Positions 24 to 47,647 of a stretch of DNA of 47,726 nt are shown in pieces. Position 1 is the stretch's first letter. Each line of letters opens with the position of its first letter. Source of the stretch: Escherichia phage HC6; the sequence record OL362274.1; one strand, written 5' to 3'. Made by a program: the position numbers and the translations under genes. Below the pieces are notes generated by a model. That model did not search any database. It saw nothing but the letters and a program-made list of their open reading frames with translations, and was not told the DNA's origin.

Positions 24-536
24 ATGCGACCCTTAAAAGAAGAAAAACTCACGCAAGACAGGCTGAAAGAGTTGCTGCATTATAACCATGATACTGGTAT
101 TTTCACATGGGTTCAGCGCGCCTCAAAAAGCGTAAGAGTTGGTAATTCAGCTGGCAGTAAGAATAAGTCAGGCTATATAGATATACGCATCGATAAGTCT
201 TTACACAAAGCTCATCGGCTTGCGTGGCTTTACATTTATGGTGTGTGGCCCAATGGGAAAATAGATCACATCAATAACGTGAAGACAGATAACAGAATCT
301 GCAACCTGAGAGAAGCAAGCAATAATGAAAACGGATGGAATGCTGGTAAACCATCGACAAATACGTCAGGAGTAAAAGGTGTGAGTTGGGATGCAGAGAA
401 AAATAAATGGAAGGCGCATTGCAGGGTTTTTGGGAAAAAATATACAGTAGGTAGGTTTTCATCAAAAGAATATGCTGAGAGAGCCGTGGCGGAGTTCAGA
501 GAGAAACATCACGGGGAGTTTTTTAATCATGGCTAG
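24..536 (+). CDS. HNH homing endonuclease with AP2-like DNA-binding domain
   Basis: 170 aa; HRLAWLYIYG...IDHIN...DNRICNLR HNH signature then GVKGVSW...KW.A AP2-like motif; clear paralog of 37495..38121; stop overlaps terminase ATG. Confidence 0.8.
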   Translation: MRPLKEEKLTQDRLKELLHYNHDTGIFTWVQRASKSVRVGNSAGSKNKSGYIDIRIDKSLHKAHRLAWLYIYGVWPNGKIDHINNVKTDNRICNLREASNNENGWNAGKPSTNTSGVKGVSWDAEKNKWKAHCRVFGKKYTVGRFSSKEYAERAVAEFREKHHGEFFNHG

Positions 537-1953
537 AAAAAGACTCTCAAGTGTGGCAATCGAAAAACTTGAACAGGCGGTTGGAAACTCAACTTCAAAG
601 CCTGAGTCTGCTGTATTTGGCATTGTTAACAAACTGCTTGCCGATGGTACGCCTAATGTTATAAAGCGCCTAAAAATGACATCAACAGGCGTATCTGAAA
701 CAAACGAAGAACCAACAATCCTCATTCCCGAGAGAATGGAATTACTGCTTTATCCTCGCCGTTTCAAAGTGTTCTATGGAGGTAGGGGCAGCGGAAAGAC
801 GGCTAACGTTGTTTCTTACCTTATAGAAAAGGCAAGATTTCGCAACAGCCGCGTCGGATGTTTCCGTGAGATACAGAACTCAATCAAAGAATCAAGCTAT
901 GCCGAACTGGTTGATGAGATAAACAGAAAAGGCCACGCTCAGGAATACCGTTGCGTGGATGGTGAGATAACACACCACTCAACGAGGTCAAAGTTTGTTT
1001 TCCGTGGCCTTTGGCGAAACATAACCGCAATCAAGGGCATGGCTGGCCTTACAGATGTATTCTGTGAAGAATCAGAAAATATCAGCCAGGTTTCATGGGA
1101 TACGCTAATCCCAACAGTCCGCGCCGCTGGCTCTGAAATTATTATTGTTTTTAACCCAAACAAAGAGACGGACCCGACATGGACTAACTTTGTTGCGCCT
1201 TATATTGACAAGATGGTTGACGGCATATATCAGGATGATGACATCGTTGTTGTTAATGTTAATTACATCCACAACCCGTGGTTCACGGAAGAACTTAAGC
1301 AGCACATGAACCAGATGAAAGCTGTGGATTATGATCGCTACCTTTGGGTGTATGAAGGCTTATTCAACAAGCGGTCTGACGAAGCTGTTCTCGGGGGGAA
1401 ATGGCAAACACTCGACTTTGAACCATCTCCTGAGTGGGGTGGGCCTTACTACGGCATTGACTTTGGTTTTTCTCAGGATGCAACAGCAGCAACTGAATCA
1501 TATGTAGAAGATTTGGGTGATGGACGAAGAAACCTGTATATCTATCGTGACTTTGCAAAGGTTGGCCTTGAGATAACTGACACGCCGGAAGCGATGCGCT
1601 CAGCATTCCCAAATTCAGAGAAGTACAGATGGTATGGGGATTGCGCAAGACCTGAAACAATAAGCCATATACGACGCTCTGGATTCGATATTCATCCGTG
1701 CGCAAAATGGCCGGGGAGCATTGAGGACGGTATTACGTGGCTGCGTGGGTGTGACAGGATTTACGTGCACTCAAGATGCAGGCACGTCATTGAAGAGATG
1801 ACAATGTACAGCTATAAGGTGGACAAATTAACAGGTAACATACTCCCTGATATAGTTGATAAATACAATCACGCGATTGATAGTTTACGCTATGGACTTG
1901 GAGATCACATCGTTCAACGCGGTAGCGGGATGCTAATCCGGCGCAGGCGATAA
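529..1953 (+). CDS. terminase large subunit
   Basis: Walker A YGGRGSGKT about 100 aa in; 475 aa; sits before portal; ATG at 529 in same frame as track ORF 472; roughly 80-aa N-terminal extension makes start uncertain. Confidence 0.85.
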   Translation: MARKRLSSVAIEKLEQAVGNSTSKPESAVFGIVNKLLADGTPNVIKRLKMTSTGVSETNEEPTILIPERMELLLYPRRFKVFYGGRGSGKTANVVSYLIEKARFRNSRVGCFREIQNSIKESSYAELVDEINRKGHAQEYRCVDGEITHHSTRSKFVFRGLWRNITAIKGMAGLTDVFCEESENISQVSWDTLIPTVRAAGSEIIIVFNPNKETDPTWTNFVAPYIDKMVDGIYQDDDIVVVNVNYIHNPWFTEELKQHMNQMKAVDYDRYLWVYEGLFNKRSDEAVLGGKWQTLDFEPSPEWGGPYYGIDFGFSQDATAATESYVEDLGDGRRNLYIYRDFAKVGLEITDTPEAMRSAFPNSEKYRWYGDCARPETISHIRRSGFDIHPCAKWPGSIEDGITWLRGCDRIYVHSRCRHVIEEMTMYSYKVDKLTGNILPDIVDKYNHAIDSLRYGLGDHIVQRGSGMLIRRRR

Positions 1954-16787: not shown

Positions 16788-17327
16788 CTACAGACGCATA
16801 GGCATAACAACAATCTTCGCAGTCTCGCCAGATGGCGCACTAAGACAGCAAACTGCGGCATTTGTATTTCCATTCAGTTCAAATTTGACACAACAGAATT
16901 TAGGATTAAACAGCTTCGCCACTTTCTCAATATCAACAAGGTATCCAGCATTGAAGCCTATTTCCTCTGCTGCTTTCGTTTCCCTTGGTATAACGTGATC
17001 AATATCAGGGAATCGACCATCAATCTCTTCGCAGATACCAGCACCAACCATTGTGTCCATATGGCCGAAATGATAAGTAACGATTCCAGATTTTGTATCG
17101 ATGATCGCATGGTTATATTTCTTTTTCGGAGACTTGCTCACCTTTACAATCACACTTTCTGTCAGCTTATTGTCATGGCTGCCGCCAATAAATGCGCGAC
17201 GACCGTCAGTTGAGGCAATACGACCATCAGGCATGAAGCAGATGCCATTCAGGTAATACCGCACATCATTGCGAGCCTGAAATATTAATGCTGATTCAAG
17301 TAATAGTTTGCTTATTTTTAGTTTCAT
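16788..17327 (-). CDS. truncated DNA polymerase III beta sliding clamp (DnaN)-like protein
   Basis: 179 aa; DVRYYLNG, STDGRRA, DGRFPD, EIGFN and C-terminal VVMPMRL match E. coli DnaN domains II-III as I recall them; no domain I. Confidence 0.7.
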   Translation of the reverse strand: MKLKISKLLLESALIFQARNDVRYYLNGICFMPDGRIASTDGRRAFIGGSHDNKLTESVIVKVSKSPKKKYNHAIIDTKSGIVTYHFGHMDTMVGAGICEEIDGRFPDIDHVIPRETKAAEEIGFNAGYLVDIEKVAKLFNPKFCCVKFELNGNTNAAVCCLSAPSGETAKIVVMPMRL

Positions 17328-22603: not shown

Positions 22604-22680
22604 TGGTGGACACGGACGGATTTGAACCTTCAATCAGCCGATTATTAGTCGGTTGCTTTAACCAATTAAGCTACGCGTCC
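22604..22680 (-). tRNA. tRNA, anticodon AAT (Ile-like) by hand fold
   Basis: 77 nt cloverleaf on minus strand: 7-bp acceptor stem, GCTT/AAGC D-stem, GGTTCAAATCC T-arm, encoded CCA; anticodon and isotype need tRNAscan-SE. Confidence 0.6.
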
Positions 22681-31588: not shown

Positions 31589-34168
31589 ATGGCTACCGTA
31601 CCAACAAATAATCCAATCCCAAGCGAAGACCCGCGCGATCTGAAATTTAATGCCGGTAAGATCGACGAGGTAGTGACATCTGATGCACATTACTATACCG
31701 ATCGCTTCGGTGTACGCCGCTGGACAATTGCTGGATTCCAATACACCGCAGAAGAAGCAATCCGTAACTACGGTTACATAACAATGGACAGCTTCGAAGA
31801 TGGCGCGACACTGACGCTTCCCAATCAGACACTGCGTTATGAAGCGAACGGAGAATATTACCGTTGGGATGGGGAGTTTCCAAAAGTAGTGCCCGCTGGT
31901 TCAACTCCAGACAGCACGGGTGAGGTTAAATTAGGAGCGTGGGTTAGTGTTGGTGATGCGTCATTGCGCGCCGATATTGCAAAACCAACCGGAACAAATT
32001 TAATTGGCGCAAAAAACGGGGAAACACTGTCTACAGTCCTGGGTAGTCGTTGGGCTAATTCGGGCGCAGATAAAAAAGAAATTCGTTTTGACCTGCCATT
32101 ACTATTCCCAGATTACGATGCGATTCTGGCGGCACACCCTGACTGGACGTTTATTTATCCAGGGTCATTCTGTATCGGGGATGATGGCAAAATCTATATT
32201 GCATACGGCCCAAGTAATAACGCAGCGACGGAACGTTTCGTTGTAGTTTACTCAGGGGAAGGTGAATACTTAGGGTATCTCCAGACTAATAATGGAGGCA
32301 CCGGGGTAAATGGTTCTGCGGTATCCGAGGGGATTATCGTAACCAATTACTATGGTTCACTTAAGTTATTCCTGGGATCCTACGATGGTAACTTAGCTGA
32401 GTTTGATATCTCAGCGGTGACCTACGGCACCACGATTAGCTATACAGCCTTGCATCAGGTAGGTCTGTATAACCAGTTCTCCTTCCACAATGGAATGTGG
32501 GCAGTTGAACAGGCCATCCCAGCGTTGGGCATTAACCGCCAACGTAATGCTATTGCGTACTTCAACTCCGCATTTGCATTAACTGGCTTCACGGAATTTT
32601 CTCCGTATGACGCTGGATACATCACGGAAACTACTACTGATTATGGGTCACTTCAAACTAAGCGACAAGCAATCTGTTTAGCTCCTGGTGTTTTGATTAT
32701 GGCATTCGGTGGTGTGTACATTACAGGAACAACTGTAGAAGCGCCTACTAATTATCAGGGGGTAAAAGCGTTCAGCACCGATGGGCACAAAATGGTAGAG
32801 GCAGTAATTCCTCCTACTGGTTTTATTAGTGTCCTGGATGCTAAAGGCTTAACGACTTCTCGTATAGAGAATGAGGGCATCTGCTATTCAAATGGTGAAG
32901 TGTTCACCTTATGGATCTATAACGACCGAACCACATCGAATGCGTATACGCATGGAATCCTAATTACCAAAGAGTATTCCAATTTCCCGGACTTGGATTT
33001 TTCTGCGGTGACAACGGTATCCCCAGGTTACGATACCATTCGGATGGCTTCTGGGGTTTATCCACGAATTCTCGCAGGCGACGTACTCTATAACCCTCTG
33101 ACCGGTATTGCCATGACTTCGTTGTCAGCAGTATTGGACTTTATGCGATTGTCCGGGCAGAAGGCAGTTACTATCTATACATCAAGCACCGGTCTTACAG
33201 ACCTGGCTGGAGTTGCCTACCCAATCGGGATAGAGCTTCATATTAGCAACCTGAATAACCAGAGCTTCTCTATAGATCAGACCGGGCCAACTACCCGTAA
33301 AACTGTTCGTGTTACTTATGACACCTCCGGTTACACAGTAGTTACTGCGGCTACTGGTTTGGAGACTTACCGTTTAACTTTAAACAATACTGACTCTGGG
33401 TCTTTAACTCAGGGGCGTATCGCTGCCAGAGCTTTCGGTAACACAACTTTAACCGAAGCAGAACAGATTCTTGTCCTCGATCAACAAAGTTCCGCATCTG
33501 CACATTCTCTTATTTTAGGTGGCGGCTCTTCATTATTTAAGAGTGCTACGACTATTAGTTTTGCTACTAATCCGTCGCCCGCAACCCTAGGTGGCACTAT
33601 TCGATGGCGTTTAGATGATACATCTCTACGTCCATACACAGATAATGCTTACAATTTAGGTAATCCATCATTACGTGTGGCTCAAGTATTCGCGGCAATT
33701 GGTACTATTAATACGTCTGATTCCCGTGAAAAAACTGATCCTTCTGAAATATCGGATGATATCCTTGATGCCTGGGGCGATGTACAGGTGATCACTTATA
33801 AGTGGTTAGCTTCTATCGCATCTAAAGGGGAGGACTCTGCTCGTTGGCATTTTGGGGTAATTGCCCAACAGGTTCGTGACACGTTCATCAAGCATGGATT
33901 GGATGGTACTGCCTTTGGCCTGCTTTGTTACGACGAGTGGGAAGATGAATATGAACCTGAGTTCGTTGATGAGATTGTTACTGTTAATATTGATGGTGTC
34001 GATACCGAAGTTACCCGTCAAGTGGAAACCGGTAATACCCTACTTACTAGAGCTGCCGGTAATCGCTGGGGCATTCGTCCCGATCAGTGTTTCTGGTTGG
34101 AGGCCGCTTATCAGCGACGCCGCTGTGATCGTATTGAAGAGCGATTAAAAAAACTGGAGGCTAAGTAA
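31589..34168 (+). CDS. tail fibre / tailspike with C-terminal intramolecular chaperone (peptidase S74-like)
   Basis: 859 aa; AAGGAG RBS; C-terminal region (DSREKTDP...RWHFGVIAQQV...WGIRPDQC) resembles endosialidase-type self-cleaving chaperone. Confidence 0.75.
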   Translation: MATVPTNNPIPSEDPRDLKFNAGKIDEVVTSDAHYYTDRFGVRRWTIAGFQYTAEEAIRNYGYITMDSFEDGATLTLPNQTLRYEANGEYYRWDGEFPKVVPAGSTPDSTGEVKLGAWVSVGDASLRADIAKPTGTNLIGAKNGETLSTVLGSRWANSGADKKEIRFDLPLLFPDYDAILAAHPDWTFIYPGSFCIGDDGKIYIAYGPSNNAATERFVVVYSGEGEYLGYLQTNNGGTGVNGSAVSEGIIVTNYYGSLKLFLGSYDGNLAEFDISAVTYGTTISYTALHQVGLYNQFSFHNGMWAVEQAIPALGINRQRNAIAYFNSAFALTGFTEFSPYDAGYITETTTDYGSLQTKRQAICLAPGVLIMAFGGVYITGTTVEAPTNYQGVKAFSTDGHKMVEAVIPPTGFISVLDAKGLTTSRIENEGICYSNGEVFTLWIYNDRTTSNAYTHGILITKEYSNFPDLDFSAVTTVSPGYDTIRMASGVYPRILAGDVLYNPLTGIAMTSLSAVLDFMRLSGQKAVTIYTSSTGLTDLAGVAYPIGIELHISNLNNQSFSIDQTGPTTRKTVRVTYDTSGYTVVTAATGLETYRLTLNNTDSGSLTQGRIAARAFGNTTLTEAEQILVLDQQSSASAHSLILGGGSSLFKSATTISFATNPSPATLGGTIRWRLDDTSLRPYTDNAYNLGNPSLRVAQVFAAIGTINTSDSREKTDPSEISDDILDAWGDVQVITYKWLASIASKGEDSARWHFGVIAQQVRDTFIKHGLDGTAFGLLCYDEWEDEYEPEFVDEIVTVNIDGVDTEVTRQVETGNTLLTRAAGNRWGIRPDQCFWLEAAYQRRRCDRIEERLKKLEAK

Positions 34169-34395
34169 TGCATGATTTTCCCCATTATTACATGCGGGGG
34201 CCGCTGTCATTATCCAAAGCGGAATTGGCATTGTGTTAGGTATGTGGGGTGCAGGAGGCGCGCCAATATACCTTGGTGGGGTGGATTCGACTGGCGAGCA
34301 TGGGACTTACCTAGTCTATTGGATTAGTTAGTACCAGTGTTAGCATATACTGTAGTTTGGGTTATTACGGCTTATATTTCCTAACAATAATCACT

Positions 34396-34425
34396 AAACC
34401 CCGCTTCAGCGGGGTTAGTTTTATC
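34396..34425. terminator. bidirectional hairpin terminator
   Basis: AACCCCGC-ttca-GCGGGGTT between convergent tail fibre and SSB genes. Confidence 0.5.
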
Positions 34426-34426
34426 A

Positions 34427-34918
34427 TCAGAAGGGAATGTCATCATCGAAGTCCATCGGAGTCTCATTGCCTCCTTGTTGGCTTTGTTGTTTTGGTTGCT
34501 GCTGTTGTTGTCGTTGCGGTTGTTGGCCTGATTGCTGGCGTGGTTGTTGTTGCCCTGCATCATCCCGCTTTCCACCAAGCATCTGCATAACACCGCCCAT
34601 CTGTGGAATTACAATCTCCGTTGTATATCGGTCAACTCCATTGCTGTCAGTCCACTTACGAGTGCGAAGTTGTCCTTCGATATAAACCTGCGAGCCTTTG
34701 CGAAGGTATTCTCCTGCAACTTCTGCAAGTTTTCCGAAGATGACCACGCGATGCCATTCAGTCTGCTCTTTCTTTTCTCCTGTCTGCTTATCTTTCCACT
34801 GCTCAGATGTTGCAACAGAAAGATTGGCAATTGCAGAGCCTGATGCTGAATATTTAACTTCAGGGTCGTTACCAACTCGACCAAGGATTATGCACTTATT
34901 AATACCAATCGAAGACAT
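34427..34918 (-). CDS. ssb: single-stranded DNA-binding protein
   Basis: 163 aa; OB-fold-like N-terminus, Gln/Gly-rich linker, canonical acidic tail DFDDDIPF. Confidence 0.95.
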
Positions 34919-35436
34919 TACTTGAATCTCCCGTTTTTATCTCTTAATCTGCCATTATGATTCTCTGTGGCGTGTAATGATGCGTGCTCTGACTTCGTCA
35001 TAAGCATTAGGTTACTTGGATGGTTGTTTGTTTTATCATGGTCTATATGATGAACGCATTCATTGTGAAACAACCTCCTCCCAATAATGCCTTCCATAAC
35101 TACGACATGTTCTCCTCTTCCTTTGTTTTCACCCATAGTTATCTCGACATAACCATTCGGTTTTACAGAGCGACCCTTGCCAACTCCTTTCTTTGATTTT
35201 GATATATTTTGCTTCCATTCTTCAGTAAACTTTCGTTTTTTACCCCTAAGTCCTGAACCAAGTCTTCCCTCTGCGGCAGCAATTCTTATTGCATCTCCTC
35301 TGCTTCTCAATATTCCGGCTTTCTTAAATCTAAACCTCAATGTTGACATGGCTATTCCTGTTTCATTGGAGATTTGAGGGATGCTCATGCCAGACAAATA
35401 CATATCAAACTCATTCATATGCACCTCCTTGTGCAA
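34918..35436 (-). CDS. HNH endonuclease
   Basis: [30 protein letters not shown] motif; N-terminal HTH-like region; start 35436 or 35418. Confidence 0.8.
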
Positions 35437-35498
35437 TATAGTAATTTACAACCATTAAGTCAACTTTTAATTACTTTATTTACGCCGCGTGCCATTTA

Positions 35499-36545
35499 TT
35501 AAAATCCTTCAATTGGAGTTGGTTTATGTTCTTGTTTTTCTTCCTGCGGTTCTGGCTGCTGTGGTTGCGGTTTAGCCAGTTTGGCAGGGTTGAAATTATC
35601 CTGAGGAGTGATTACCACAGGGGGTAATTGCTCATCATTGATAAAAGACTCAATGCGATCATATTCAGCAGCAGAAGCAGCGAGAGAAGGCCATATTGCA
35701 CGAATCTTATCTTTCAGGTTATCAGGTATTGATTTCGCCTCTTCCTTCAGTCCTTCCATTCCTTTTGCTGCTGAAAGCTGAAGTCGTGAGCGCCATGATT
35801 CAAACTCTTCGTCAACTTTAACACCAGAGTCCACCCATTTGATGAGTCCTCGACCATGAGCCTCTCCAATATAGCCATGACGAACGCTTTCACGACCAGA
35901 CTCAAAGAAGATGGGGCGTAGCTCTTCTGGTAATTTGGTGAACTCCTGAATTTTTCCTCCATCGTGCATCATCATGCTCACGGTCATCTCGAACATGAAA
36001 TCTTTCTCGCACACTGGCTGTAACCCAAGTGATACAGGTTCCTTCGGGTTTGCGAAGTCAGTTTTCTGGCGAGCGCGAAGACAGACAATGATATGCATAT
36101 TGCTTTGTAGCATGGCATTCATGAACTTCTTGTGTTCAGCTTTGGCGCGCTTCCAGTCAGCCATCTTTTTACCGTTAAGCAGCGGCTTTTCAGCAATCTC
36201 CGTGCAACTGCCTTCACCTTCCCATTCATGCGAACCTGAATCAATAACAAGAACCTTAACGCCGGCAGCCTGAAACTCTTCAATGGCCTGACGGTAACGG
36301 GCCGGGCTGAATGGAGCATACATATCAGCGTGCAGGAATTTGCCATCAAGGATGTTTGAGTACAGGCGACCGCGACCATTTTCAGTATCAAGGAATCCGA
36401 TTTCTTCTGGTGAGTCAACCATCCCGCGAGCCAGCTTAAGTGCGCTGTATGTTTTTCCGCTACCAGACTGGCCTGAAATACCGATGACTACACGAGAACC
36501 TGAACGCTCTGCTGGTTTAATATTGAGAATACCCATTTTCATCAC
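35499..36545 (-). CDS. Sak4-like RecA-fold ATPase
   Basis: Walker A GQSGSGKT near N-terminus; about 346 aa; next to SSB and exonuclease. Confidence 0.65.
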   Translation of the reverse strand: MMKMGILNIKPAERSGSRVVIGISGQSGSGKTYSALKLARGMVDSPEEIGFLDTENGRGRLYSNILDGKFLHADMYAPFSPARYRQAIEEFQAAGVKVLVIDSGSHEWEGEGSCTEIAEKPLLNGKKMADWKRAKAEHKKFMNAMLQSNMHIIVCLRARQKTDFANPKEPVSLGLQPVCEKDFMFEMTVSMMMHDGGKIQEFTKLPEELRPIFFESGRESVRHGYIGEAHGRGLIKWVDSGVKVDEEFESWRSRLQLSAAKGMEGLKEEAKSIPDNLKDKIRAIWPSLAASAAEYDRIESFINDEQLPPVVITPQDNFNPAKLAKPQPQQPEPQEEKQEHKPTPIEGF

Positions 36546-36553
36546 CTCACTAA

Positions 36554-37498
36554 TTATAAATTAAACTGTTTTTTGAACCATTCAGGCGTTTCCATTTCTA
36601 TGACAGGATTACCCATTGAATAACCGGGCCACGAATTGGCTTTTTTGCACGCCTTGTAAATTTCCATAGCGCCATGCAACTGAATTCGACCGATGCGTAA
36701 TTGCTCTTCAGTCAAGCGAATTAACGCAGGAATAAATGGTGCTTTCTTTTCCTGAACGAGAAGATTAACAGAGCGTGGCGCATGACCATATGCCGCAACA
36801 AACATGTCGTGCTGCATCGCCATTTTCATAAAGTACCCAAGTCTCGCAGCATGACGGAAAAACTCTTCTGGCTTGGCGCTCACCGCTGTTTTGTAGTCGA
36901 TGATGTCGCCACCTTTGGTAAGGCAGTCAAAGCGAACTTTTGCCTTCTCTCCGTTAAGTTCACCTAGAATTGACACTTCAGCATAAGCACCAGCGAGAAG
37001 ACTGCTGTAATAGCTGTTTGCGTGGATTACAGCACGCATTTGCTGAATAGCGTCATAATCACCACCTTCCAGCATTTGCTTTCCTACAGCAGCTTTTTCA
37101 GCCTCTTCACGGATGACATCGTAAATTTTCACTGGCTCGCCAGTCGCCTGGATGATTTTGATCACCTCAGCTTTCGACTTTCCTGAAAGTCCTTTGATGC
37201 CTCGTTCTTTTGCCCATGAGTTCATATCACTTACAGTAACAAGCAGGTCATCACCAAAATCTTCTTTGGTTGGCATTCGTGCATATTCAGCATCAAAACG
37301 CTCTGGTTCAAGCAACGCAGTATGGCTACCTGTACCGAATATAAGAGCTTTTGATTGCTCATCCTCTTCGTCTTTGTATCGCCATGCTGCCGGGCATCTG
37401 TCAAGTATATTCCATAATCCAGAACCATTAATGTGCTCTGTGTCAGCATGATAATCCTGATTGCTTAATTCATTGTTGAAATAAACTCTCATCATCAC
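36554..37498 (-). CDS. PD-(D/E)xK family exonuclease
   Basis: 314 aa; D...IIDYKT resembles PD-(D/E)xK core; context with Sak4-like and SSB. Confidence 0.6.
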   Translation of the reverse strand: MMMRVYFNNELSNQDYHADTEHINGSGLWNILDRCPAAWRYKDEEDEQSKALIFGTGSHTALLEPERFDAEYARMPTKEDFGDDLLVTVSDMNSWAKERGIKGLSGKSKAEVIKIIQATGEPVKIYDVIREEAEKAAVGKQMLEGGDYDAIQQMRAVIHANSYYSSLLAGAYAEVSILGELNGEKAKVRFDCLTKGGDIIDYKTAVSAKPEEFFRHAARLGYFMKMAMQHDMFVAAYGHAPRSVNLLVQEKKAPFIPALIRLTEEQLRIGRIQLHGAMEIYKACKKANSWPGYSMGNPVIEMETPEWFKKQFNL

Positions 37499-38121
37499 TC
37501 TCCGTGGTTACAGAATTCTTTATGCATCTTTTCTCTGAATTTCATCACAGACAACCTCGCTCTCTCAATATCATTGAATAACCCAAGATGGTATCTTTTC
37601 CCGTTAACATCACAGTAAGCATGCCACTTTTTAACCTGTTTTTGCCAATACACACCTTTAACTCCTGATGTGTTATTTTTTGGTTTTTTAGCGTTATACT
37701 GGTTCTGCATATTTGTTGCGATTCTTAAGTTGCAAATCCTGTTATCGTCACGCACACCGTTAATGTAATCAATTTGACCTTCAGGCCAGAAACCATAATA
37801 AATCAACCATGCCAAGCGATGCGCGTAGTATCTTTTATTATTTATGCTTATCTCTATGTATCCGTTATGTTTTTTCCTGCCAGCGACAATACCCTTTCTT
37901 ACACCTCCACCCGTCTTATTTCTAATGAAAACCCCTGTTTCATGGTTGTAATTTAAGCTATCCAAAACAACATAACGTGGTATTCTTTTTCTTCTTCCTA
38001 TGGTGTTTGACTCTGCACTTCCCTGAGCAAAATCTTGCTTTTGCAGTTCCGATAAACTCATTTCCACAAACCTCGCACTTCTTAACGGTGATAGCCATTT
38101 CTTACCCTCTATTGTAATCAT
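37495..38121 (-). CDS. HNH homing endonuclease with AP2-like domain
   Basis: AHRLAWLIYYG...IDYIN...DNRICNLR and GVKGVYW...KW.A motifs; paralog of 24..536. Confidence 0.8.
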   Translation of the reverse strand: MITIEGKKWLSPLRSARFVEMSLSELQKQDFAQGSAESNTIGRRKRIPRYVVLDSLNYNHETGVFIRNKTGGGVRKGIVAGRKKHNGYIEISINNKRYYAHRLAWLIYYGFWPEGQIDYINGVRDDNRICNLRIATNMQNQYNAKKPKNNTSGVKGVYWQKQVKKWHAYCDVNGKRYHLGLFNDIERARLSVMKFREKMHKEFCNHGE

Positions 38122-38166
38122 TTTCCGTTACATTGCAAGTAACTTTTATTTGTTACTAACGATACA

Positions 38167-38592
38167 TTAATCTACGTCATCCAGCAAGCCAAAATAGAAA
38201 AGCGTGGCTTTTTTTAATTCATCAAGCCCATAAGCTATGGCAGCATAATGACCAAGCCTGCACATCTCTGTTAGCACTGCTGATTGATCCTTGCTCACCC
38301 TGCTTTTGCTTTTATCGCGGCGCTTTGCTTCAATCATCCCACAACTGTGATTTACCCCCGGAGTCATTATCACATTGTCGCCTATACCAGCCTTAACCCC
38401 CATCTTCTGGCGCTTCAGCACAAACTGCACCCTGCTTGATGTGCCAGTTTCGTTGGGTACATGAAACCACAGAACATCAGGGAAGCGGTGTTGCATCCAT
38501 GTTCCGTAACCCATCTGGTCAGTCTCCTCTTTAGGACACTCACCACGATAACCGCTATCAAATACCCATATGCCGCTATCAAGCTGCTTCAC
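38167..38592 (-). CDS. VRR-NUC domain nuclease
   Basis: 141 aa; GIGDNVIMTPG...IEAKRR...SKDQ fits VRR-NUC pattern as recalled. Confidence 0.6.
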   Translation of the reverse strand: MKQLDSGIWVFDSGYRGECPKEETDQMGYGTWMQHRFPDVLWFHVPNETGTSSRVQFVLKRQKMGVKAGIGDNVIMTPGVNHSCGMIEAKRRDKSKSRVSKDQSAVLTEMCRLGHYAAIAYGLDELKKATLFYFGLLDDVD

Positions 38593-40507
38593 TTTGTTCT
38601 CCTTTAAATTCTTTGCGGTGGATTATGTCTCTGCCTTTATCATTAATTCGATGCGTTATGCGTTTTGGCGCTTTAATTAATCCCGCATACATCATGAATT
38701 GCTTGGCGTTCTGGCATTTCAGTATTTTCCCAGCCATTGACTTATCATCAAGGTGAGGAAAAACCGCCTTTGCCTTGAACATGTTTTTCATGTGAGTTGC
38801 GCCGCCATAAGGGTAGAAAACTTCATTAGCCCAGCCTTCTTTGCCATCACAACGGTTAATCCAGTAGCGATATAAAATCCCCTCTCCGTCCTTCGTTAGT
38901 TGAACCTTGAAATCCATAACATCAGCCCACTCGTTATCTGTATAAGCACGCTCATTCAGTGCCGAATTAGGGTCGCGCAACACGTGATCGCAATGTCTGC
39001 AATAGCGCGCAGTGGGGTCGTTTTTAGTGCCGCAACCATCATCAAAAATCCGGATTCCGTGCTTATCAAAACCGCAACGGATGTAACTGAAAAATTCTTC
39101 GCAGCGACCATCTGGAGATAGCGGGTCTTTCCCTATGCATCGACGCGCATATGGGCTGTTCATTGTTCCACATGTATGACACGGAACTTGTTCGCCACTG
39201 CGTTTTGAACGTTGCGCTTCAGCCTCTTCCAGAATCGGGTCTTCATACAGCTGACCAAGCTCAAACATCGTGCCAGAGAAATCAAGAACCAGATGGTCTT
39301 CTTTATGATACCCGGCATCAATTTGCTCTTTCTTCAGTAGGCGCATTCCGCGACCAAGAAGCTGGACAAGGAGAGTTAGCGACATTATTTTTCGCAATAT
39401 GCAGCTCGTATCCCATAACGGTATATTTACGCCAGTGGTAAGGGCGGCTATCTGGAATGTGAATTTTTTACGCCCGGTGTATGCATCTTTTAGAGCATTC
39501 CTTCTGGCTTTTGACCCCATATCTTCTGTAACTATTGAATAACTTCCTTCGGGTAGGTATTTTGCCGCCTCCTGACAATGTTTTTTACCAGCACATGTAA
39601 TCAGTACGCCGTTTCTGTTTTTAGTCAACTCCATAACCTTGAGCATGATTTTCTGCGTCAACGTACCTTGCTCAAGAATTTCTTTCTGCATCTGCTTGAG
39701 CTGCTCGGCGGTAAAGTCCTGAGTACCATCAACATCTGAACCATGAAAATCCGAAAGGTCATAATGCAGACTATCAACATCATGAAGACCAAAAATTGTT
39801 GGAACAAGAAAACCGTTTTCAACCATGTACTTGGTGTCTATGTTGATAATCTCTTTCTTCCAGAAAGCGCCTTTTATTGATGTAGTTCCGCGAAACGGTG
39901 AGCCTGTATAACCTATTATTCTCAACTCATGGCCATGCTTATCTTTACACCTTTTCATTAGCTCATTAATTATCACTGCATACTGCGTATCACCATTATT
40001 AACAACATCAATGTCATTAACCATATGATTTTCATCGATCAGCAGGAATCTTGGGCAAAAGTCAGAGAGCGCACCTTTTGCAATAACATTCCCATGCTCA
40101 TCTTTTTTATCAAACAAAGCATTTACAACAGTACCCTCAGAACCACAGATTATTGGGTACGTAGAACTTTTCCTACCCAACGAAGCACTGAATAGCGAGT
40201 TTCTAACACCAAGCAACCATAGCTCTTCCGCATCTTGCTCCACTATTTCGCCCTGTCTTGATAAAATCATCCCTGAATAGCCCATCTCCTGAAAACGCTT
40301 TGCTATCATGGCAATCATCAGTGACTTTCCGCTACCGACACTTGCTGTTACATAGCTTGGGCCAACATAATGACGAATCACATCGCCAGTTAACTTATAT
40401 ATCAACCACTGATAGGGTCTTGGCTCGATATCACCAGTATCCAGATAAGATTTCAGCAGATTAATATCAATCTCTGAAATCATTTTGTCGATTTTATGCA
40501 TTACCAA
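38579..40507 (-). CDS. SF2 DNA helicase with C-terminal zinc-ribbon extension
   Basis: Walker A SVGSGKS, motif II LIDENH, motif III TGSP; C-terminal about 200 aa with several Cys pairs. Confidence 0.8.
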   Translation of the reverse strand: MVMHKIDKMISEIDINLLKSYLDTGDIEPRPYQWLIYKLTGDVIRHYVGPSYVTASVGSGKSLMIAMIAKRFQEMGYSGMILSRQGEIVEQDAEELWLLGVRNSLFSASLGRKSSTYPIICGSEGTVVNALFDKKDEHGNVIAKGALSDFCPRFLLIDENHMVNDIDVVNNGDTQYAVIINELMKRCKDKHGHELRIIGYTGSPFRGTTSIKGAFWKKEIINIDTKYMVENGFLVPTIFGLHDVDSLHYDLSDFHGSDVDGTQDFTAEQLKQMQKEILEQGTLTQKIMLKVMELTKNRNGVLITCAGKKHCQEAAKYLPEGSYSIVTEDMGSKARRNALKDAYTGRKKFTFQIAALTTGVNIPLWDTSCILRKIMSLTLLVQLLGRGMRLLKKEQIDAGYHKEDHLVLDFSGTMFELGQLYEDPILEEAEAQRSKRSGEQVPCHTCGTMNSPYARRCIGKDPLSPDGRCEEFFSYIRCGFDKHGIRIFDDGCGTKNDPTARYCRHCDHVLRDPNSALNERAYTDNEWADVMDFKVQLTKDGEGILYRYWINRCDGKEGWANEVFYPYGGATHMKNMFKAKAVFPHLDDKSMAGKILKCQNAKQFMMYAGLIKAPKRITHRINDKGRDIIHRKEFKGEQSEAA

Positions 40508-40764
40508 ATCCTCGCACCAAGACGTTCAATTGTTTGTTTCTTTGTTTCATCATCTATTCCGCTATAAAAATACATATAACTAAGATTCCATAGATAATCT
40601 TCTGGTCGCTCATCGGCAAACAAATCATCCCACTCAAAAATCCATTCTCCAGTTCTCTGTCTTCTGTATATGGTTAGCCATGTATTGCTTCGTGGCGGGT
40701 ATCCGAAGGCAACAGGGATTGGCTTGCCATGAAAAATCCTCTTAAAAATGCTATCAAGGAACAC
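40501..40764 (-). CDS. hypothetical protein
   Basis: 87 aa, Trp/Tyr-rich. Confidence 0.5.
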   Translation of the reverse strand: MFLDSIFKRIFHGKPIPVAFGYPPRSNTWLTIYRRQRTGEWIFEWDDLFADERPEDYLWNLSYMYFYSGIDDETKKQTIERLGARIW

Positions 40765-46273: not shown

Positions 46274-46445
46274 CGATATCAGCGACGCAATGCAGAACAT
46301 GTGGGAACGCTACTGGAACAGCATGAAGACATGTCACTACATGATGGTACAGATAGGTAGTTACATTGAGGTTGTTCCTGACAATGGTGTGCACGACATT
46401 AAGTACATGTGCTCAACGAGGGATTATGCTAATGCAAACCACTAA
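46266..46445 (+). CDS. hypothetical small protein
   Basis: 59 aa from ATG 46266; in frame with track ORF 46248. Confidence 0.45.
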   Translation: MFNDISDAMQNMWERYWNSMKTCHYMMVQIGSYIEVVPDNGVHDIKYMCSTRDYANANH

Positions 46446-46599
46446 ACAGAAAGTCTGGCAACTCGCAAAGCAGCACGAATTAGACGATTTCATCGAGAAG
46501 GTTGCAAAGACATTCCCTGACGCGCTTGAAGTCGTTCATGTGCAGACGCGAAATGAAAATGCATGGTGCTACACAAAAAATCATACAAATGGTAGATGA
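46429..46599 (+). CDS. hypothetical small protein
   Basis: 56 aa; in frame with track ORF 46366. Confidence 0.4.
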   Translation, partial: LMQTTKQKVWQLAKQHELDDFIEKVAKTFPDALEVVHVQTRNENAWCYTKNHTNGR

Positions 46600-47026
46600 A
46601 ATGAAGCTAACAAAAAAACAACGCGAAGAGCTACGCATGAAGTTCGGTGGTCGCTGTGCTTATTGTGGGTGTGAGCTACCCGAGAAAGGTTGGCATGCAG
46701 ACCATGTTGAACCAGTGCTACGTAAATCTGAGCAGTGCATGAAGGCAGCGGCGAAAGGGATTTTCAAGCTGAAGGCAACCGGTGAGCTATATCGACCAGA
46801 AGCCGAGCGACTGGAAAACCTTTACCCTGCGTGCGCCCCCTGCAATCTGATGAAAACTTCCTATTCCCTGGAAATGTTCAGGAAGCAGGTATCTCTTCAG
46901 GTTGCTCGTGGGCGCAAAAGCAGCATGAATTTCCGCACTGCAGAGCGTTTCGGTCTTATCGCCGTGGTGGAGAGGCCAGTTGTTTTCTGGTTTGAGAAAT
47001 ACCAGGAAGAGAACGAAAAAAAATAA
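46589..47026 (+). CDS. HNH endonuclease
   Basis: CAYCG...HADHVEP...NLYPACAPCN HNH motif; about 145 aa from ATG 46589. Confidence 0.8.
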   Translation: MVDEMKLTKKQREELRMKFGGRCAYCGCELPEKGWHADHVEPVLRKSEQCMKAAAKGIFKLKATGELYRPEAERLENLYPACAPCNLMKTSYSLEMFRKQVSLQVARGRKSSMNFRTAERFGLIAVVERPVVFWFEKYQEENEKK

Positions 47027-47122
47027 ATGTGTTTATGATGCTCTGTTGGCAAGCGCGATAATGATGGTGTACAATAAACGCATAACCACCATTGCTTTCA
47101 CTTATATCATCACCCAACCTTT

Positions 47123-47149
47123 AACCCGCCTTGTGCGGGTTCTTTTTTA
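47123..47149 (+). terminator. rho-independent terminator
   Basis: CCCGC-cttgtg-GCGGG then TTCTTTTTT. Confidence 0.6.
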
Positions 47150-47206
47150 TCTACGTCTATGTGTTAAAATTAGCGTATGTGAGTTACTCAAAGAACACAA
47201 AAAGAC

Positions 47207-47647
47207 ATGGCGAATCCAAATCCAAAACACAAGTTTTCCTCTACAAATCAACCGCCTCCGCGCGGTAAGAGTTATCGCACAGTGCTGCTTGAGGCGCTTC
47301 GTGCTGCAAATACACCGATGAATGAGATTGAATTCGTCACGTATTACATCAATAGGGCCATGACATGCGAAGACGCTCAGGCAACTGGTATGCTTCGAGA
47401 GATATTCCTGCGGCTCAACCCAATTCCTAAGCCTGTAGCTCCTCCTGTGGAGTTTGACTTCCCTGCTGACGGAACTCCGGTTCAGAAAATGGATGCAATC
47501 ATCAAGGGTGTCTCCACTGGCGTCGTGCCTGCTGACATCGGCAAGATGATGGCTGACATTATCAAGTCTGGCCTTGATATTCAGGAAATCACCGAACTCG
47601 CAGCGCGACTTGAGCGACTGGAGAAATTGCTGGAACAGCAACAGTAA
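47207..47647 (+). CDS. putative terminase small subunit
   Basis: 146 aa, basic N-terminus, C-terminal coiled-coil-like LAARLERLEKLLEQQQ; would sit upstream of HNH and TerL if genome is circularly joined; weak. Confidence 0.35.
   Translation: MANPNPKHKFSSTNQPPPRGKSYRTVLLEALRAANTPMNEIEFVTYYINRAMTCEDAQATGMLREIFLRLNPIPKPVAPPVEFDFPADGTPVQKMDAIIKGVSTGVVPADIGKMMADIIKSGLDIQEITELAARLERLEKLLEQQQ

Follow-up and report, generated by a model that had tools for sequence, protein, structure and literature searches.

The complete genome of Escherichia phage HC6 (OL362274.1), a stretch of 47,726 nucleotides hereafter called the window, contains four genes for HNH nucleases, which I refer to as HNH_A to HNH_D (coordinates in Table 1). 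I propose, with a probability of about 80%, that these are free-standing cassettes of the homing-endonuclease type, selfish genes lodged beside or inside conserved phage genes, and comparison with related genomes supports this interpretation well. None of the four seems to belong to the machinery of recombination or packaging. Elements of this kind are well known, and the main finding is in that respect an ordinary one: nuclease genes, HNH-AP2 and others, that lie beside other genes and vary between genomes form an established pattern in phages (PMC10055350; PMC12724721), homing endonucleases have been noted in Jerseyvirus (PMC8425127), and the records of relatives already label some of these HNH genes as homing endonucleases. 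The details that appear to be new are an ssb-specific insertion with a rebuilt gene start, a donor patch that crosses host genera, a recoded terL start, and a zinc-ribbon leader.

In the proposed mechanism, the nuclease would cut a cassette-less allele during a mixed infection, at the start of terL, ssb or the exonuclease gene. The break would then be repaired by recombination with a cassette-bearing genome, whereby the cassette and its flanking sequence would both be copied (co-conversion), and the cassette-bearing allele would itself escape cutting, its target being interrupted or recoded. Traces of the kind expected from co-conversion and from an altered target are found at three sites, namely the recoding of terL (seen in all 13 occupied genomes and in none of the 8 empty ones), the identity gradient and donor patch around HNH_B, and a drop in identity within the exonuclease gene.

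Traces of insertion at the four sites

In a megablast search, positions 33500..39500 match Escherichia phage 6947 (ON637251.1, 47,726 bp) at 100%; this record is the same complete genome as the window, offset by a rotation of 23 bases, and phage HC8A is nearly equal. The nearest relatives in the same type of search are K1-specific E. coli siphoviruses and Jersey-like Salmonella phages, a group named Guernseyvirinae in the literature (PMC5582158). A sequence-only reading of this DNA had counted four HNH genes. All four open reading frames (ORFs) are present at their original coordinates, and all score against HNH-type Pfam families, HNH_D reaching 25.4 bits against a cut-off of 21.4 bits when scored on the longer ORF 46502..47026. 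That reading had also called the copy beside the exonuclease gene a paralogue of the terminase-adjacent one, and an alignment of HNH_A with HNH_C bears this out (54% identity over 153 amino acids, E=4e-56). Judging from their domain matches, both combine an I-HmuI-like HNH domain with an AP2 DNA-binding domain, and a separate sequence-reading domain, as in I-HmuI-like homing endonucleases, was scored as present. The HNH motif is intact, with its His general base, in HNH_A (IDHIN) and in HNH_B (HHIDHD with NN..NL), and is altered in HNH_C, as described below. Searches of PDB sequences with HNH_B, HNH_C and HNH_D gave marginal matches only.

I compared 29 IMG/VR loci around the Sak4-like gene and 21 close loci around terL, together with annotated stretches of phages ZCEC08, ST1UNAM, Bas78 and ST46. 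In ST46 the order is SSB, Sak4, exonuclease and VRR-NUC, with neither HNH_B nor HNH_C; ST1UNAM also lacks both, ZCEC08 has only HNH_B, and Bas78 only HNH_C. The two genes said to interrupt the recombination module are thus insertions relative to ST46 and ST1UNAM. At the junction of the Sak4-like gene and ssb, HNH_B is missing from all 24 IMG/VR loci that span it, as well as from ST1UNAM, Bas78 and ST46. Of the 21 loci around terL, 8 have no insert between the terS-like gene and terL, 7 have an HNH_A-type gene there (92% identical) and 6 another HNH allele (44–54%), and HNH_D is absent from the DUF7334 site in 21 of 21 IMG/VR relatives. The gap between the VRR-NUC-like gene and the exonuclease gene measures 34–672 bp and contains HNH_C (L020), an HNH gene 37% identical to it (L027 and L028) or unrelated small genes; in eight relatives it is only 34–49 bp. 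Each of the four genes is therefore present in some genomes and missing from the corresponding locus in others that are otherwise collinear, and fixed ancestral positions, which would have spoken against mobility, are not seen.

HNH_A lies between the terS-like gene and terL, and its stop codon overlaps the terL ATG (AATCATGGCTAG). The terL gene starts as ATGGCTAGAAAAAGACTCTCAAGTGTGGCA (MARKRLSSV) in all 13 HNH-occupied genomes and as ATGGCTCGTAAACGCCTNTCNGCNCTGGCA (MARKRLSAL) in all 8 empty ones, with no exception. This recoding of codons 3–9 spans three HNH alleles and differing downstream terL variants. The recoded start looks as a cleavage-resistant allele beside a homing nuclease gene should, and I predict that it is the resistant version of the HNH_A target. 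A hairpin ahead of HNH_A does not reach significance (z = -1.9; 10 of 200 shuffled sequences fold equally well).

HNH_B is inserted within the start of ssb. In genomes where this site is empty, ssb follows the Sak4 stop immediately (MARGVNKVIIVGTLGN...). The minus strand of the window reads, in order, a 28-nt remnant of ssb, a promoter-like site, a ribosome-binding site (RBS), HNH_B and a rebuilt ssb start. The remnant, also present in Klebsiella phage BUCT541, is now a dead-end ORF of 11 residues (MARGVNKVIKS*), and the HNH_B stop overlaps the new ssb ATG (TAATG). The promoter-like site, a consensus match only, belongs to the inserted DNA. It also bears on where HNH_B begins, most likely at the ATG at 35418, because the TTG at 35436 falls in the -10 box of that site.

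Homologues of HNH_B were found by tblastn in few other phages, always directly upstream of ssb: Klebsiella phages BUCT541 (99.4%) and KlebP_265 (99%), Hafnia phage yong1 (53%) and Pasteurella phage Pmp11 (49%). The HNH proteins of the last two begin with a duplicated ssb start fused in frame (MAGVNKVII... in Pmp11, MASRGV... in yong1), which argues that the lineage uses a single insertion point, after about codon 6–9 of ssb, in phages that are otherwise unrelated. The HNH_B lineage is dedicated to the first ~9 codons of ssb, and duplication of these codons keeps ssb intact. I did not find a description of such an ssb-start insertion rebuilt by duplication in the literature, although no search was aimed at it.

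Between phage 6947 and BUCT541, the HNH_B cassette has ~99% nucleotide identity, which decays stepwise into ssb, and other aligned stretches are at 75–79%. The Klebsiella relatives of BUCT541 have the ERF gene next to ssb, with no HNH gene between. Compared with KpV2811, BUCT541 keeps the Klebsiella ERF sequence until ...FNPAKL and then changes to E. coli-type sequence for ~0.8 kb, comprising a Sak4 tail on ERF, the ssb remnant, HNH_B and ssb codons 1 to ~37, after which the Klebsiella sequence resumes. The last ~90 nt of the Sak4-like gene have moved with HNH_B into BUCT541. Apparently the Sak4 tail was imported together with the cassette, leaving a chimeric recombinase and a chimeric SSB, and I read this donor patch, centred on the nuclease gene, as the clearest trace of homing-type conversion in the data. 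The junction itself can be followed in the BUCT541 locus (L077 3320..4125, aligned with L120), where the ERF recombinase bears the E. coli-type C-terminal tail of Sak4 (AKPQPQQPEPQEE..HKPTPIEGF).

The HNH_C cassette is shared with Bas78 and L020. Identity to L020 is 94–99% within the cassette and 77–86% from ~100 nt into the exonuclease gene, and the first ~14 exonuclease codons differ between HNH-occupied and unoccupied genomes (exonuclease codons 10–14). HNH_C is annotated from the ATG at 38061, the likely start, because the ATG of the longer ORF, at 38121, sits inside the promoter-like site 38138..38111. The catalytic His of the HNH motif is the general base. At this position HNH_C has a Tyr codon, so that IDYIN stands in place of IDHIN. 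The His is kept in 13 of 13 aligned relatives, Bas78 and L020 included, and in a separate alignment of 48 family sequences, HNH_C not among them, D81 and H82 never vary and the equivalent column is His throughout. The substitution suggests that the copy in the window is probably catalytically dead, a decaying element and not an active one, and such a loss would fit a late stage in the life of homing elements.

HNH_D belongs to another HNH family than the other three. It replaces the last codons of a DUF7334 gene, whose original 3' end is found, displaced, on its far side. Copies at least 99% identical occur in only 8 GenBank phage records, and relatives at 82–84% stand among the small early genes of a Drexlerviridae phage and of a P22-like phage; in unrelated phages, members of the family are found dispersed over the early accessory regions. 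From this distribution I take HNH_D to be mobile and not tied to the terminase, and its homing to be uncertain. Another HNH_3 gene lies within or beside the same DUF7334 gene in L039 (1924..2813) and L049 (2195..2825), and codons 28–49 of the DUF7334 gene are partly duplicated in L039.

It could also be that the cassettes are old, were inherited vertically and have repeatedly been lost from relatives, with no gain by homing. Presence and absence alone do not separate gain from loss, and decay is visible in HNH_C. However, the empty alleles are seamless, with gene ends that are intact and differently coded; cassette-bearing alleles keep leftovers of the original ends (the 5' remnant of ssb and the 3' remnant of DUF7334); and E. 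coli and Klebsiella phages are far more alike in the HNH_B cassette than in the sequence around it. I therefore consider repeated loss very improbable.

A further explanation is that the HNH genes are accessory "morons", brought by ordinary recombination, illegitimate or homologous, into variable spots; their nucleases would leave the empty alleles uncut and serve some other purpose, such as attack on host or competitor DNA or counter-defence. The gap between the VRR-NUC-like and exonuclease genes has at least seven different fillers, most of them not nucleases, HNH_D has its relatives among small early accessory genes of Drexlerviridae and P22-like phages, and recent papers tie phage homing endonucleases to immune evasion. 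Against this, three of the sites are at the very start of essential or conserved genes, with precise overlaps and with duplicated and recoded target codons; the sites are used repeatedly by different HNH alleles; and the BUCT541 patch is shaped like a conversion tract centred on the HNH gene. On balance this explanation seems unlikely, if less so than repeated loss.

A role in packaging has to be weighed for the genes near the terminase, as the sequence-only reading had suggested that the terminase-adjacent copy may assist it. HNH_A could be a packaging co-factor like HK97 gp74, or HNH_D, ~180 bp upstream of the terS-like gene, could fill that role. HNH_A does sit between the terS-like gene and terL, and HNH_D resembles the gp74-type proteins in belonging to PF01844, the Pfam family of terminase-associated HNH proteins, and in lying upstream of a terS-like gene; its only PDB match is a weak resemblance to 4h9d (E=0.61). 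Unlike gp74-type genes, neither is a constant neighbour of the terminase and portal genes throughout the group: 8 of 21 close relatives, whose TerL proteins are 82–96% identical, have no insert at the HNH_A site, and none of 21 relatives has HNH_D. HNH_A is moreover of the I-HmuI/AP2 type, an altogether different HNH type from PF01844, and between HNH_D and the terS-like gene lies a terminator-like hairpin. The TerL proteins of K1G/K1H-like phages group with those of headful packagers (PMC5582158), which also counts against a packaging role. The suggestion is not supported; I rejected it for both genes on conservation, and give it hardly any credence.

Several points weigh against the homing proposal that I favour. 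I infer the target sites of the HNH genes from comparison only. The compared genomes are related to one another, so that the association of 13 occupied with 8 empty terL alleles does not represent 21 independent events, and the HNH stop codon, which overlaps terL, dictates part of the recoding (TAG supplies the AG of AGA). The many non-nuclease fillers of the gap that holds HNH_C mark it as a general variable spot, HNH_C itself lacks the catalytic His, and HNH_D has no recognisable DNA-binding domain and has relatives in unrelated contexts. The sequence-only reading had taken the density of HNH genes as a sign of active homing spread. The recoded target, the identity gradient and the BUCT541 patch argue for the homing part of that statement; "active" does not fit every copy, HNH_C being probably dead, and for HNH_D homing itself is less clear.

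A zinc-ribbon frame ahead of HNH_C

Just upstream of HNH_C, and overlapping it by ~105 nt, is an ORF of 46 codons that is not annotated in ON637251. It starts MAITVKKCEVCGNEFIGTAKARFCSGKCRVKHHRKKKK... and has the pattern CxxC...CxxxC of a zinc ribbon; its match to the Pfam "treble clef" family DUF2116 (E=0.004) is below the cut-off. The body of HNH_C is in the +1 frame relative to this ORF.

The leader is not confined to the window, as tblastn finds it in 54 phage records, enterobacterial and Vibrio phages among them. It consists of a promoter-like site, an RBS, the zinc-ribbon ORF (45–51 codons) and an A-rich tract of Lys codons. The promoter position seen at HNH_C is kept in other leaders with variant hexamers, for example TTGACA-17-TAATAT in L018. 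At least 10 different nuclease bodies follow the leader in ~45 distinct cassettes, in the +1 frame in all; among them are several HNH_3/AP2 types, one that is Endo VII-like and, from Vibrio phages, two more (PHROG 953 and PHROG 20046). Among 32 unique leaders, the entropy at the three codon positions of the zinc-ribbon frame is 13.0, 12.5 and 28.5, and within the overlap 9.5, 10.7 and 19.3. This concentration of variation at third positions indicates that the zinc-ribbon frame is the one under selection in the overlap, and that the +1 frame takes over past the A-rich tract.

A start codon for the +1 frame (ATG or GTG), with a Shine-Dalgarno-like motif, is always found inside the zinc-ribbon ORF; it occupies one of two positions, and the motif shifts together with it. 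Because this internal start is always present, the simpler reading is one of two overlapping genes, a small zinc-ribbon protein and an internally started nuclease. The former may be an undescribed partner or regulator whose gene, by overlapping the nuclease ORF, would limit translation of the nuclease, and I regard the chances of this as evenly balanced. A more elaborate scheme is that HNH_C belongs to a family of modular nuclease cassettes with a mobile 5' leader in common, which form a two-product system, with the zinc ribbon made alone (for instance as an autoregulator) or joined to the nuclease by a programmed +1 shift or by transcriptional slippage in the A-rich tract; this is the less likely of the two, and I put it forward as a doubtful possibility.

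The zinc peptide alone is rare: only three clusters of stand-alone proteins of 45–50 amino acids were found in 5.8 billion sequences. In-frame fusions of zinc ribbon and nuclease were not found with an artificial fusion as query (247 matches, none full-length), the ~45 cassettes all being +1. RNAalifold on the 32 leaders revealed no conserved RNA structure (-4 kcal/mol, no compensatory pairs). Nothing specific was found in the literature on frameshifted or zinc-ribbon-led homing endonuclease genes; coverage was incomplete, and this is weak evidence of novelty. One distant zinc-ribbon ORF, in L109, has no nuclease downstream and was set aside.

The layout recalls that of the two-ORF transposases of the IS1/IS3 type, in which an upstream DNA-binding ORF and an A-rich shift site precede a catalytic ORF in another frame. 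The HNH_C cassette likewise has an upstream zinc-ribbon ORF, an A-rich tract of Lys codons and an out-of-frame catalytic ORF, and the likeness is one of layout only. In contrast to those transposases, it would need a +1 and not a -1 shift, and it has no canonical slippery heptamer. A zinc-ribbon ORF common to so many nuclease cassettes may reveal how toxic genes are expressed or restrained.

Coordinates, neighbouring genes and other observations

Table 1. Features of the HNH cassettes and their surroundings in the window, with the evidence for each.
Feature	Position	Strand	Evidence and remarks
HNH_A	24..536	+	Pfam HNH_3, E=1e-13; sub-threshold AP2 match
terL 5' end, codons 3-9 recoded	529..560	+	Comparison of occupied and empty genomes
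ssb	34427..34918	-	Pfam SSB PF00436, E=2e-38; gene in which HNH_B is inserted
Rebuilt, diverged ssb 5' end	34868..34918	-	17 residues replacing MARGVNKVIIVGTLGN; alignment
HNH_B	34918..35418 (ORF open to 35436)	-	Pfam HNH_3, E=6e-10
Sigma-70-like promoter of HNH_B cassette	35435..35463	-	TTGACT-17-TATATT, 10/12 consensus matches; followed by RBS AAGGAGG
Remnant of original ssb start	35460..35495	-	28 nt, ATGGCACGCGGCGTAAATAAAGTAATTA; alignment with empty-site ssb genes
Sak4-like ATPase	35499..36545	-	AAA_24, E=4e-12; PHROG 124; left flank of HNH_B
PD-(D/E)xK exonuclease	36554..37498	-	Pfam DUF3799; PHROG 412 "exonuclease VIII"; flank of HNH_C
HNH_C	37495..38061 (frame open to 38121)	-	Pfam HNH_3, E=4e-15; sub-threshold AP2 match
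Tyr codon at catalytic His position of HNH_C	37765..37767	-	TAC; IDYIN in place of IDHIN
Zinc-ribbon ORF, 46 codons, unannotated	37957..38097	-	MAITVKKCEVCGNEFIGTAKARFCSGKCRVKHHRKKKKNTTLCCFG; RBS AGAGGG
Sigma-70-like promoter of HNH_C cassette	38111..38138	-	TTGCAA-16-TACAAT; consensus match only
VRR-NUC-like gene	38167..38592	-	Homologue profile against PDB 4qbl; flank of HNH_C
DUF7334 gene, last codons replaced by HNH_D	46432..46599	+	Pfam DUF7334, E=8e-33; alignment with empty-site relatives
HNH_D	46589..47026	+	Pfam HNH PF01844, 25.4 bits; PHROG 2118, E=2e-58
Displaced remnant of original DUF7334 3' end	47027..47077	+	Alignment with empty-site relatives
terS-like gene	47207..47647	+	PHROG 9747, E=1e-47, function not annotated; left flank of HNH_A site

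The neighbours named in the sequence-only reading (SSB, the Sak4-like ATPase, the exonuclease and the VRR-NUC gene) keep their labels after Pfam, PHROG and profile searches. Taken singly, the VRR-NUC-like protein does not reach the Pfam cut-off (E=0.058), but a profile built from 8 homologues matches the VRR-NUC structure 4qbl at E=9e-6, with D72, E88 and K90 invariant, and the PD-(D/E)xK core of VRR-NUC is thus present. The gap between this gene and the exonuclease gene (37499..38166 in the window; L002-L028) is itself a general variable spot, with at least seven fillers, mostly small genes whose function is not known.

The small-terminase label of the terS-like gene comes from position only, the gene being directly upstream of terL in empty-site relatives. 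Annotation is doubtful here: the terS-like ORF encodes 146 amino acids, yet GenBank annotates it from 47318 only, and a GenBank coding sequence at 47061..47321 (+) crosses the terminator-like hairpin (47123..47141) and overlaps the start of the terS-like ORF.

Relatives carry nuclease genes at further sites that are empty in the window, upstream of the helicase gene and downstream of terL. The former (40501..40764 / 40507 in the window) is occupied by HNH or Endo VII-like cassettes in 13 of 26 relatives that span it. The helicase gene of the window (38579..40507) is uninterrupted; that of IMG/VR locus L008 (1076..4156) is split by an intein-like insert, placed at the DExH motif (...MDEC|LTGDALI... 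to ...VAHN|CHQ), which has a LAGLIDADG-like ORF and is spread over three frames in the contig.

Two observations lie outside the HNH regions. ARAGORN finds a single tRNA gene, at 22604..22680 (-), for tRNA-Ile with anticodon AAT; bacteria usually read Ile codons with GAT, and AAT is an unusual anticodon for Ile. The gene at 16788..17327 (-) is labeled "DNA polymerase III beta subunit" in GenBank, yet has no Pfam match at E<=0.001.

Significance and relation to known systems

The window adds a well-documented example of how homing-type nuclease genes shape the mosaic genomes of Guernseyvirinae-like phages, a group that serves in work on phages of K1 E. coli and of Salmonella. Four target sites are predicted, at the terL start, ssb codons 1-17, the start of the exonuclease gene and the 3' end of DUF7334. 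The natural donor and recipient pair formed by the E. coli-type phage and BUCT541 indicates that flanking coding sequence can travel with such a cassette between phages of different host genera, making chimeric recombination proteins, and the likely dead HNH_C beside live-looking relatives offers a built-in control. Should the zinc-ribbon leader be a regulatory or frameshift device, the interest of the finding would rise.

The closest systems are the HNH homing endonuclease I-HmuI of Bacillus phage SPO1 (PDB 1u3e) and the HNH_3-AP2 class, with the "IPA-HNH" protein of Vibrio phage ICP1 and the I-HmuI-like HNH endonucleases of Skunavirus. I-HmuI is encoded in an intron, whereas the HNH genes of the window are free-standing and known from sequence alone. 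HNH_C departs from these systems in having a Tyr at the catalytic His, and HNH_B in having, in place of AP2, a putative helix-turn-helix-like region at its N-terminus, judged by eye.

In their position between genes or at gene ends, in the predicted cutting of a neighbouring gene where the cassette is lacking and in the co-conversion of flanking markers, the genes of the window resemble mobE, SegB, SegG and other free-standing homing endonucleases of phage T4 (PMC2790892; PMC2330249; PMC2988022). Unlike the T4 free-standing enzymes, they belong to a Guernseyvirinae-like siphovirus lineage, and HNH_B lies inside the coding start of ssb, which has been rebuilt by duplication.

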